DNA from: an uncultured archaeon
Lineage (GTDB): Archaea > Asgardarchaeota > Lokiarchaeia > Sigyniarchaeales > SOKP01
Reading direction: 5' to 3'
DNA length: 64,000 nt
Assembly: GCA_964486045.1 (NCBI GenBank)
Contig: CAZALK010000001.1
Location: forward strand, 648,242 to 712,241
Shown: positions 4,898 to 27,790 of the stretch, in pieces
Position numbering within the stretch: position 1 is the stretch's first letter
How the letters are laid out: every line of letters begins with the position of its first letter
Notes under the pieces: generated by a model
Database searches by the model: none
The model's input: only the letters and a program-made list of their open reading frames with translations
Told to the model about the DNA's origin: nothing
Position numbers and translations under genes: made by a program

Positions 4898-5785
4898 TCA
4901 GACCATAATATTTAACATTTTAATTAACTCTTTATACCTGGAACGAAGTGTTACTTCTGTTACTCCAACCAAATTTGCAATTTCCTTCTGAGAAACTCTC
5001 TTATCCTTCATTTTGCAGACTAAATAAAGAGATCCTGCACATAAACCTTTAGGATCCTTCCCGGAAGTAGAGAATTTGGATATGAATGATTGTAAAATTT
5101 TAATGGTTGCGTTCTCCGCATCAGCATCTAAATCTAATTCTGCGATAAACCTTGGGATAAGAGAAATTGGATCAGTAGAGGGTACTTTCAGATTTAATTC
5201 TCTGATTAATGTTCTATAACATCTTCTAACATTCTTGGCACTAATAGATGTTTCATCTAGAATTTCCTGTAACGTTCGGGGAATTTTCCTTTCTCTGCAA
5301 GCAAAATATAAACAAGCTGCTACCATTCCATTAATAGATCTTCCCCTAAGTAATTTTTTCTTAAAAGCCTCTATATAAAGTCGGATGGCAGTCTTTTTCA
5401 CATGATTGGGCAAATTTAAATTGCTCGCAATTCTTTTCAATTCAGTTGTTGCTATTAACATATTGCGTTTGTCCCAGGTCATTCGAGAATTCCATTTAGC
5501 AGCCCTTTTTAAGTCAGGATTTTTAATGCTTGTTTTATCGATGATAGTACTTAATCCCATATCAGGTAATAGAATTGAGATGGGAGATCCTGTACGTTCT
5601 CTACTTTCTTTTTCCTGTTTTGTAAAAGCTCTTTTGCCGCTATGAGCCGTATCAACTATCCTCTCATTTATTACCAATCCACATTGACCACAAACTATTT
5701 CTCCCTTTTCATGAAGAGGAATAACCTTACCTCCACATTCAGGGCATGAATTTGTAAAACTTCTTATATATGATTCTATATCCAT
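4898..5785 (-). CDS. tfb: Transcription initiation factor IIB
   Basis: Zn ribbon CPECG..CGQCGLV, two cyclin repeats, GRS, GKDP, VTEVTLRSRYKEL. Confidence 0.97.
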   Translation of the reverse strand: MDIESYIRSFTNSCPECGGKVIPLHEKGEIVCGQCGLVINERIVDTAHSGKRAFTKQEKESRERTGSPISILLPDMGLSTIIDKTSIKNPDLKRAAKWNSRMTWDKRNMLIATTELKRIASNLNLPNHVKKTAIRLYIEAFKKKLLRGRSINGMVAACLYFACRERKIPRTLQEILDETSISAKNVRRCYRTLIRELNLKVPSTDPISLIPRFIAELDLDADAENATIKILQSFISKFSTSGKDPKGLCAGSLYLVCKMKDKRVSQKEIANLVGVTEVTLRSRYKELIKMLNIMV

Positions 5786-25307: not shown

Positions 25308-25590
25308 AATTTTATTAATGGAAAATATTTGTTCCTAATTTTTAAAATAAATTGTAGTATTTTTTTTAAACAAAATATGCAAAAATTTAGGAGTTGGGTT
25401 AAATATTTATAAATTTATATAATATTAAAATTTAATTTTGAATGATAAGTTGTTATATCATCTAGATCTCCACAATGAATCGTTCTTTTCAATCTCTATT
25501 AATTAAAAATATAAAAATATAATAAGAAAAACATTTATTATAATTATAACAATTATTAAAAATTCCTTATGGCACTAAAGGTGTAGGTTT

Positions 25591-25995
25591 ATTCAGTTTG
25601 GATCTGATTTAGGAATAAATCAAGAAGATATAGAGAAAATTAGTCCTCAAATTACGTTTATTACATCTAATGCAGATATTGAGGCTATTGCGCTTGTAAG
25701 TTCTGAGGGTTACCAGATTGCATTTTCAGCATTACCCCAATATCATGCTGATGGAGATCAGTTTTGCGGTCTTGCAAGTGCATTATTGATGACAGGGAGA
25801 TCTACAATTCAAACATTGTTTCAAGAGGATTTAAGTGAAATCATTGTAAGAGCAGAAAATGGCTACATAATCATAACCAATGCGGGACGATTAGTAATAG
25901 TATGTGCGGGAACTATTATTGATACTTTGATGAAATCTGTGAAGGTCATGCGCATTGCGGCTAAAAATTTATATAAGATTTTCGAAAATAGATAG
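25591..25995 (+). CDS. Roadblock/LC7 domain protein (true start upstream of the called ORF)
   Basis: Frame is open from 25579 and encodes the N-terminal half IEAIALVSSEGYQIA..ASALL, then EIIVRAENGYIII. Start codon uncertain. Confidence 0.85.
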   Translation: MQFGSDLGINQEDIEKISPQITFITSNADIEAIALVSSEGYQIAFSALPQYHADGDQFCGLASALLMTGRSTIQTLFQEDLSEIIVRAENGYIIITNAGRLVIVCAGTIIDTLMKSVKVMRIAAKNLYKIFENR

Positions 25996-26178
25996 AATTT
26001 CCATTCTTATTTTCCTCAACCATTTTCTCGATAAATAAGACTATACATTAATTTATCATTAATGTAATGTTTGGCTCTCAACTCTATAATGCTATTTCAA
26101 AAATATCAATCGAAAAGAGTTAACTTTTTAAACCTTAAAATAATCAATATCATTAAATTATCTTTTAATAATTGATTT

Positions 26179-26253
26179 ATGACACTTGCTAGAAACCTAT
26201 TGTGGTGTTGGCAGTGGCCTTGGCGTGGCGATACCGCCTTATCATTGGAATAA
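26179..26253 (+). CDS. Trp-rich leader peptide (TrpL-like) MTLARNLLWCWQWPWRGDTALSLE
   Basis: ATG 26179 to TAA 26253, four TGG codons within seven, 133 nt upstream of trpB2. Confidence 0.75.
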   Translation: MTLARNLLWCWQWPWRGDTALSLE

Positions 26254-26270
26254 TTAATTAAAAACACATC

Positions 26271-26294
26271 TCTCTTACTCTTTTTTGTCTTTTC
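26271..26294 (+). terminator. Pyrimidine/U-rich tract after the leader peptide (candidate attenuator terminator)
   Basis: tctcttactcttttttgtcttttc resembles archaeal oligo-U terminators. Confidence 0.4.
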
Positions 26295-26386
26295 AAAAAA
26301 AAATTATATCTTATGTGCATTAATCTGTTGATATCCAATAAATTAATGACACACATTTAATATAAAGAAAAAAAAGTGAAACTAAA

Positions 26387-27790
26387 ATGATAGATTATTT
26401 CAAAGCAAGGATATTTTTAGAACCAAGCGAGGTTCCAAAGGAATGGATAAATATCATACCAGATCTACCCACTCCTATAACTCCATTGGTTAACCCAATG
26501 GATGGAAAACCTGCACCGCCAGAAATGGCATTTGCAATTTTTCCCAAAGAATGTGTACTGCAAGAAGTATCACAAGAGAAGACAATTCCTATCCCAAATG
26601 AGCTGAGAGAAATTTATGCTAAAACTTATAGACCAACACCCCTCCATCGCGCCTTAGGGTTAGAGCGGGAGTTGGGAATAGAAGGAGATGATATTAAAAT
26701 ATTTTATAAGAACGAATCAACATCTCCTACGGGATCACATAAACCAAATACTGCGATAGCTCAAGCATTCTATGCAAAAAAAGATGGATTAGAAGGGTTA
26801 GTTACAGAAACAGGGGCGGGACAATGGGGATCCGGCTTAGCGTACGGATGTAATTTATTCGATATCAAATGTACAGTTTACATGGTCAGAGCAAGTTTTA
26901 TACAAAAACCAGGTAGAAAAATCTTAATGAGGTCTTATGATGCTGAAGTTCATGCAAGTCCTTCAAGATTTACAGAATCAGGAAAAAGCTTTTTAGAAAA
27001 AGATCCAGATCATCCTGGAAGCCTAGGAATTGCAATCTCTGAAGCTATTGAACATAGTATGAGTAGCGATAAAATAAGGTATTCTTTAGGATCTGTAGTA
27101 AATTTTGTGCTTTTGCATCAAACGGTTATTGGGCAAGAAGCTAAGATACAATTAAATAAGGTGGGGATCAAAGATCCTGATATAGTAATTGGTTGTATGG
27201 GCGGAGGATCTAACTTCTCTGGGTTAATGATTCCTTTCGCTAGGGACAAATTAACTGGAGTTAACTCAGAAATTGAGATTATTGGGGTGGAACCACGAGC
27301 CTGCCCAAGTGTGTGTAAGGGAGAGTATCGGTGGGATTTTGGGGATACCGCAATGAAAGGACCTATCGCTAAGATGTACACATTAGGTCATACTTTTATT
27401 CCAAGCCCGATTCACGCTGGTGGATTAAGGTATCATGGAATTGCTCCAATAGTTTCAATTTTATACGACAATAAGGTAATATCAGCGACTATGCATCATC
27501 AAACCGAAGTTATCAAAGCTGGGATTCAATTTGCGAAAACGGAAGGAATTCTCCCCGCACCTGAAACCGCACATGCTATAAAAGAAACCATCGATCAAGC
27601 TTTAAAAGCTAAAGAAAACAACGAAAAGAAGGTAATTCTCTTTAATTTTAGCGGTCATGGATACTTTGATTTATTAGCTTATAAAGAATTTATGACAGGT
27701 GCATTAGAAGACTATGAATTACCAACCGAGAACATTCAAAAAGCCTTACAGTCAGAAGAAATGCCCAACATCAATGAAGCAGAATTTTAA
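26387..27790 (+). CDS. trpB2: Tryptophan synthase beta chain 2 (TrpB2)
   Basis: RPTPL.RA..LE, SPTGSHKPNTA (PLP Lys), ETGAGQWG, GGGSN, HAGGLRYHG, SGHG. Confidence 0.96.
   Translation: MIDYFKARIFLEPSEVPKEWINIIPDLPTPITPLVNPMDGKPAPPEMAFAIFPKECVLQEVSQEKTIPIPNELREIYAKTYRPTPLHRALGLERELGIEGDDIKIFYKNESTSPTGSHKPNTAIAQAFYAKKDGLEGLVTETGAGQWGSGLAYGCNLFDIKCTVYMVRASFIQKPGRKILMRSYDAEVHASPSRFTESGKSFLEKDPDHPGSLGIAISEAIEHSMSSDKIRYSLGSVVNFVLLHQTVIGQEAKIQLNKVGIKDPDIVIGCMGGGSNFSGLMIPFARDKLTGVNSEIEIIGVEPRACPSVCKGEYRWDFGDTAMKGPIAKMYTLGHTFIPSPIHAGGLRYHGIAPIVSILYDNKVISATMHHQTEVIKAGIQFAKTEGILPAPETAHAIKETIDQALKAKENNEKKVILFNFSGHGYFDLLAYKEFMTGALEDYELPTENIQKALQSEEMPNINEAEF

Follow-up and report, generated by a model that had tools for sequence, protein, structure and literature searches.

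The window analysed here, a 64,000-nt stretch of DNA from an uncultured Asgard archaeon of the Lokiarchaeia, carries a trpB2 gene preceded by a leader with a short, Trp-codon-rich upstream open reading frame (uORF) and several RNA elements (Table 1). As a preliminary description of this DNA had stated, trpB2 is the only Trp-pathway gene in the window, being the sole match there to seven trp-operon proteins. It qualifies as a TrpB2 encoded outside the trp operon, scoring above the TIGR01415 cut-off (518.85 bits) and lying apart from trpA; the source genome has trpB1 inside an operon plus this separate trpB2, an arrangement known as i1_o2 (PMC1854888). The gene upstream of the leader (25400–25995), which seems to start before the position reported by the ORF finder (25786), is conserved at many orthologous loci and has no NCBIfam match at 1e-30.

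Table 1 Features of the trpB2 locus (positions within the window)
Feature	Position	Strand	Remarks
Purine-rich BRE-like stretch and TATA-like box	26113–26132	+	TTTTTAAA at 26125–26132; promoter function inferred
Leader uORF	26179–26253	+	24 codons, four TGG; start codon kept or GTG/TTG in relatives
Putative sensor: four Trp codons in W-x-W-x-W-x-W register	26203–26223	+	TGG at 26203, 26209, 26215 and 26221
Hairpin P1	26222–26238	+	Last Trp-Arg codons pair with the following arm; stop codon in loop in most orthologues
CAxxGG element	26243–26248	+	15–26 nt from last Trp codon; candidate aCPSF1 cleavage or factor-binding site
U-rich untranslated spacer, candidate archaeal terminator tract	26270–26294	+	Rich in U4 tracts in orthologues
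Hairpin P3 (3-nt bulge, 5-nt loop)	26313–26356	+	Sequence-conserved; covaries
Shine-Dalgarno-like GTGA of trpB2	26376–26379	+	SD-like motif conserved in orthologues
trpB2, stand-alone TrpB-like tryptophan synthase beta	26387–27790	+	467 aa; TIGR01415 589.9 bits

We verified the uORF, its four TGG codons, the TATA-like box, a GGCG/CGCC hairpin, the U-rich tract and the long hairpin, all at the positions first reported, as well as the local GC-richness of the uORF (0.48, against ~0.20 in its flanks and 0.31 in the genome). The uORF is genuine and lies beyond chance expectation: only 3 of 3829 intergenic ATG-started uORFs scored in the source genome have at least three Trp codons within eight, and the two of these with four such codons precede trpB2 and trpD. 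The reading frame does span the 24 codons first reported, but this length is derived: a one-base deletion common to the window's clade lengthens the C-terminal tail, and most orthologous leaders have 15–18 codons, their stop lying one to three codons past the last Trp codon, in the P1 loop. In a quick search, two further groups with other uORF extensions were placed elsewhere on the TrpB2 tree; judging from this quick tree, without a formal test, the extended uORFs likely have separate origins.

Across orthologues, an ATG-started uORF with at least two Trp codons in eight was present at 122 of 142 distinct trpB2 loci (at least three Trp codons at 105/142), and four more loci had a Trp uORF started by GTG or TTG, for a total of 126/142; one further locus was interrupted by an assembly gap and 15 had no uORF. 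Controls at the two-Trp level yielded 0/142 on the antisense strand, 1/126 downstream of the gene and 33/1420 in shuffled sequences. The 142 loci are related—the closest named relatives of the source genome are mostly Promethearchaeota (Lokiarchaeia) MAGs—and the counts are not independent, so that independence is overstated. Elsewhere in the class, a uORF ending in W-x-W was present at 16 of the 18 trpB2 loci from other families. The order of parts is conserved: TATA, a uORF whose end reads W-x-W-x-W, P1, CAxxGG, U-tracts, P3 and SD. A conserved Trp-rich uORF upstream of Asgard trpB2 orthologues, put forward in the preliminary description as a check on its reading, was thus found in both sets. 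The leader remains with trpB2 where the upstream gene differs (loci L014, L023–L026, L030), and most trpD loci having upstream DNA possess a Trp uORF as well, including a sister leader before a trpDCFBAEG operon (contig C17; L031:2740–2971) that has the same P1, CAxxGG, U-tract and P3. Related leaders precede trpB2 (L128) and trpD (L040) in Ca. Lokiarchaeum ossiferum B35. In other Asgard families the signal was patchy (15/29 sense vs 3 antisense), with several weak cases but clear ones in families f8 and f21.

The Trp leaders of f8 (L302, L303, L305, L311) and f21 (L290, L291) are longer (45–59 aa) and have an MGFALT-like N-terminus common to both families, with CAxxGG kept in f8. Leaders of family f2 (L128, L209, L210, L214–L216, L224, L226, L040) have longer spacers and no CAxxGG; a GCTCTA motif is conserved at their stop codon or close to it. 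In addition, the TrpB2 proteins of records titled Thor-, Hodar-, Hermod- or Odinarchaeota (L051, L057, L062, L071, L079, L091, L103, L108, L109, L120) group among Lokiarchaeia at 75–87% identity; the depositors' labels of these records may be wrong.

The promoter elements upstream of the uORF have counterparts in relatives: in 116 orthologues, a TTTTWA motif peaks 54–63 nt upstream of the leader's ATG, and the BRE-like stretch and TATA-like box are, from their sequence, the probable promoter of a transcript comprising leader and trpB2. A promoter of trpB2's own at a TATA-like stretch (26356–26367), raised as a caveat in the preliminary description (~26356–26365), was rejected; this stretch is not conserved in orthologues, whereas the upstream TATA is. 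At five loci that have no leader at all, a TTTTAW box lies 67–85 nt before trpB2. Of the orthologues, 91% have an SD-like motif ahead of trpB2, compared with 28% of divergently transcribed genes, and the anti-SD of the 16S rRNA is intact.

We assessed RNA structure by comparing the pairing of native arms with that of chimeric ones. P1 arms paired better in the native combination in 32 of 43 representatives and worse in 11 (p=2.5e-3), and P3 arms were likewise better when native (p=5e-5); the covarying structure that had been proposed as a further check therefore exists in both hairpins. The GGCG/CGCC hairpin initially noted at 26227–26238 is present, but represents a shifted register of the conserved P1. 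In pair counts over 30 leaders, seven pairs had changed on both sides vs 2.6 in shuffles, a control that ignores relatedness. Covariation rests on the chimera test and the pair counts, neither of them fully independent of phylogeny; an unbiased mutual-information scan was dominated by relatedness. None of the 19 other segment pairs beat the chimeric controls, and the long-range pairings suggested by visual inspection, of the U-tract with an A-tract close to the SD and of CAxxGG with either the loop of P3 or the Trp codons, failed the same test.

Between the two hairpins lies the CAxxGG element, which the preliminary description had overlooked. Its C, A, G and G are near-invariant; it recurs in the distant family f8, is part of the reading frame where the uORF is extended and is absent from most leaders of families f2 and f4. 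The chimera test revealed no covarying partner for it, and a T-box-like reading was rejected, the T of TGG not being kept. The spacer that follows is richer in T than the DNA after convergent genes (fraction 0.47–0.56 in 113 leaders vs 0.38–0.42) and has 2.5 vs 1.3 U4 tracts per 60 nt. In masked folds, the position of the ribosome altered access to the CA, and not to the U-tract or the SD.

P3 has only two matches in the source genome, namely the two Trp leaders, and its core is kept at nine trpB2 loci that lack the uORF (L057, L059, L120, L138, L140, L142, L148, L158, L198). Because these leader-less loci retain it, P3 has a role independent of the uORF. A Trp-responsive factor or ligand might even exert the main control by binding P3, either in the RNA or in the DNA as an operator of the TrpY or Tar kind, and leave the uORF secondary; its sequence conservation, its confinement to the two Trp loci and its survival without the uORF would fit, as would the DNA-binding regulators known from archaeal trp operons (PMC6737238). 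Such an arrangement would leave the conserved Trp codons, start codons and P1 unexplained, however, the Cys and Leu leaders described below have no P3, and the excess of G-U over A-C pairs on the sense strand (35 vs 10) favours RNA over DNA, so that we regard it as improbable. One of the nine loci, L138, keeps the TATA, start codon, P3 and gene, while Trp codons, P1, CAxxGG and U-tract are gone together—a clean deletion of sensor and spacer.

What the leader peptide itself contributes can be gauged from its codons. Length (11–59 aa) and N-terminus vary freely among orthologues, yet 401 of the 461 codons that follow TGG begin with C (12.7% in the genome's coding sequences), and the spacer codons are CAG in 44/59 (genome, 21%) and CGT in 40/54 (genome, 11%). 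These biases point to selection on the RNA rather than on the peptide. They weigh against a TnaC-like arrest peptide, in which the nascent chain would sense free tryptophan in the exit tunnel and block termination at the stop codon: WQWPWR-like endings do recur and the untranslated spacer is long, like that of the tna leader, but peptide length and N-terminus are variable, the stop has shifted downstream in three places of the tree, and synonymous codons are constrained. The conserved peptide with fixed residue-to-stop spacing that would define this type was not found in the leaders, whose length and stop vary and whose constraint is at the RNA level. Moreover, arrest at high Trp would here need to shut biosynthesis off, the reverse of tna logic. 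We therefore hold an arrest peptide to be very unlikely. The likeness to E. coli tnaC lies elsewhere, in a uORF followed by a long untranslated spacer open to a termination factor, with the stalled ribosome adjoining the loading site; TnaC, by contrast, responds to free Trp by means of its peptide (PMC8429421) and switches catabolism on, whereas the Asgard leader has no conserved peptide or stop position, precedes biosynthetic genes and has aCPSF1 as its candidate factor.

RNA-level constraint also leaves room for the uORF being an untranslated by-product of an RNA motif or, alternatively, for its encoding a trans-acting small protein, in either case without Trp sensing in cis. P1 demands TGGC repeats, the uORF has been lost at 15 of 142 loci, and its translation has not been demonstrated. 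Nevertheless, frame, start and stop are kept, the repeated codons fit the pathway encoded downstream not only for Trp but also for Cys, Leu and Arg (see below), and the peptide is not conserved in the manner of a protein; we rate this explanation, too, as very unlikely.

In bacteria, clustered cognate codons in a leader uORF are an established sensor of charged tRNA. We read the Asgard uORF in the same way because its run of a rare amino acid matches the pathway, is kept over the class and overlaps a hairpin, as in that precedent; cis-acting sensing of Trp-tRNA by the uORF is, in our analysis, highly likely. The core of the preliminary description, that a Trp-codon uORF controls trpB2 in cis, hence gains support from orthologue conservation, and the leader as a whole is real, conserved and very probably regulatory, all of this without experimental data.

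It had been left between control of read-through and control of translation how the sensor would act; no alternative terminator/antiterminator pairing was supported, and whether transcription or translation is the target remains undecided. Classical attenuation through competing antiterminator and intrinsic terminator hairpins would share the sensor logic, and the CC in the 3′ arm of P1 has a possible second partner in the GG of CAxxGG. That helix, however, has only 2–3 bp and is no better in native than in chimeric combination (12 vs 30), no hairpin-plus-U terminator was found, P3 comes after the U-tract rather than before it, and Rfam gave no credible match, which makes this output hardly probable. 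The comparison with E. coli trpL is instructive in this respect. Shared are a short uORF with clustered Trp codons before trp genes, codons that form the 5′ arm of a hairpin, and, as would be expected of the Asgard leader, induction on Trp shortage; the Asgard leader differs in its alternating W-x-W near the stop, its 130–170 nt spacer and its archaeal promoter, and in lacking an antiterminator and a GC hairpin followed by U. Of the features that define trpL membership, a cognate-codon uORF before pathway genes and codons overlapping a conserved hairpin (segment 1:2, via P1) are met; a mutually exclusive antiterminator helix (2:3), where only P1 and P3 beat chimeras, a GC-rich intrinsic terminator with U run, and a match to an Rfam leader model (such as Trp_leader) are not. 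The Asgard leader is accordingly trpL-like in its working yet falls outside the trpL class, with translation and Trp-dependent read-through being inferred.

The main rival to the output we favour is post-transcriptional: the same Trp-tRNA sensor could act on initiation at the trpB2 SD, on re-initiation or on the stability of the full-length mRNA. The trpB2 SD is conserved and lies ~20 nt past the end of P3, an A-rich stretch beside the SD is paired to the U-tract in the fold of the window's own leader, and P3 arms vs the ribosome-binding site (RBS) gave a borderline result (p ~0.06). Mycobacterial polycysteine leaderless sORFs provide a precedent, in which C-terminal cognate codons control translation by pairing with the SD (10.1101/834739). 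The Asgard codons resemble these in being terminal and pairing with downstream RNA, but their partner is the adjacent arm, and the SD is ~150 nt away; hiding of the SD by the codons, as that class requires, was supported neither by Trp codons vs RBS (p=0.88) nor by masked folds, in which SD accessibility was unaffected by ribosome position. Covariation with the RBS region was also missing for the U-tract (p 0.56), and a seven-gene operon has the same leader. We consider post-transcriptional output unlikely, but by no means negligible.

With the parts of classical attenuation missing and SD sequestration unsupported, we propose that aCPSF1/FttA terminates transcription prematurely in the untranslated spacer before trpB2 and that the ribosome gates this step—an output that is inferred only and that we judge about evenly poised between right and wrong. 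Transcription would start ~25 nt before the uORF (inferred). At ample Trp, the ribosome would complete the uORF and depart, exposing CAxxGG and 130–170 nt of untranslated U-rich RNA, which aCPSF1 would cleave, terminating transcription. Under Trp shortage, the ribosome would stall on the Trp codons, melt P1 and adjoin CAxxGG, thereby blocking aCPSF1 loading, and the polymerase would get to P3 and the SD so that trpB2 is expressed; P3 might serve as a pause or as a 5′-protective element. Given the covariation of P1 with the Trp codons, a ribosome stalled there is bound to alter this hairpin. The scheme would combine a trpL-type sensor with occlusion of the kind known from the tnaC leader, where a stalled ribosome blocks Rho.

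Several properties of the factor suit this scheme. Lokiarchaeal aCPSF1 is functional in Methanococcus maripaludis reporters and terminates according to the number of U4 tracts (PMC8716108); the Pyrococcus enzyme prefers single-stranded CA (PMC3553952); and FttA needs nascent RNA from −1 to −36, i.e. 36 nt, and cuts optimally after U with U-rich RNA upstream (PMC11616081). aCPSF1 is encoded in the source genome, and with U4 tracts in untranslated RNA the leader meets what defines an aCPSF1-dependent terminator in these two points, mapped 3′ ends being unavailable. The termination described so far, however, occurs at gene ends and inside operons and is not gated by an amino-acid-sensing uORF (PMC8716108, PMC11616081, PMC3553952), and mutual exclusion of ribosome and FttA is only a hypothesis in PMC11616081.

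The U4-rich spacer, the aCPSF1 gene, the shift in CA accessibility and the joint loss of sensor and spacer in L138 suggest aCPSF1-dependent output. Against it, data on expression, start sites and termination are lacking, U-rich tracts are nothing unusual at a genomic GC content of 31%, and CAxxGG is not universal, as families f2 and f4 illustrate. The U-tracts lie 30–70 nt past the Trp codons, outside the footprint of a stalled ribosome, so direct occlusion requires a first cut close to CAxxGG, and P1, being GC-rich, is unlike the U-rich RNA favoured by FttA ahead of its cleavage site.

The source genome harbours further leaders of this kind. A poly-Cys uORF before a cysteine-synthase-family gene (L047, ~5070–5152, minus strand, G000:C25) is kept in 5/5 close orthologues; its stop codon occupies the loop of a hairpin, and a long hairpin follows. 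A Leu-ending uORF before leuS (L048:953–1036, G000:C21; L259–L274) was found at 15 of 17 loci in a first scan. In most relatives the leuS leader has a hairpin directly after the stop, with a U-tract inside its loop. The LeuRS of the source genome and of G013 (L259, L260) are only ~33–35% identical to those of other genus members (L261–L275), and the same leader precedes both types; replacement of leuS behind a kept leader is possible. In this one genome, a Leu-rich uORF with the ending LHLLLL lies ahead of a leuA-like gene (G000:C34, before 9027, minus strand) and an Arg-rich one with the ending RPSRRGF ahead of a five-gene arg operon (G000:C14, before 22180, minus strand). No cognate leader was evident upstream of hisG, hom or pheA of the source genome, and a scan by cognate run plus hairpin was too noisy for use. 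The queries used did not find ilvC (TIGR00465) or DAHP synthase (PF00793) in this 99% complete genome, in which trp, his and arg genes are nonetheless present. An Asgard system of leaders for several amino acids (Trp, Cys, Leu, Arg), in which a stalled ribosome blocks aCPSF1 cleavage at a CA past a short stem-loop, is a tentative proposition, and we would sooner doubt it than assume it.

Trp-responsive control of archaeal trp genes is known for TrpY and Tar, which, unlike the leader, are DNA-binding proteins acting at initiation (PMC6737238); neither 'attenuat' nor 'leader' occurs in that source. We found no report of archaeal attenuation by an amino-acid leader peptide in the literature searched, which did not cover most subscription journals, and Methanosarcina uORFs have been catalogued without a mechanism. 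In 2005, Xie and Reeve reportedly suggested that the leader of trpY contains a Met-Trp ORF of two codons.

Archaeal amino-acid genes have been described as controlled at initiation by DNA-binding factors (PMC6737238). A conserved sensor of charged tRNA in the form of a uORF would add ribosome-based control to these, and as there is no terminator/antiterminator pair, a different output step is needed. If our proposal is true, the closest lineage to eukaryotes would have attenuation that uses a nuclease—aCPSF1 is the orthologue of eukaryotic CPSF73—in place of a terminator hairpin or Rho. The leader would then be a natural test bed for the hypothesized competition of ribosome and FttA/aCPSF1 on nascent RNA (PMC11616081). 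As far as sequence alone can tell, ribosomal sensing of Trp shortage, known in bacteria, very probably extends to this Asgard archaeon and most of the relatives examined.
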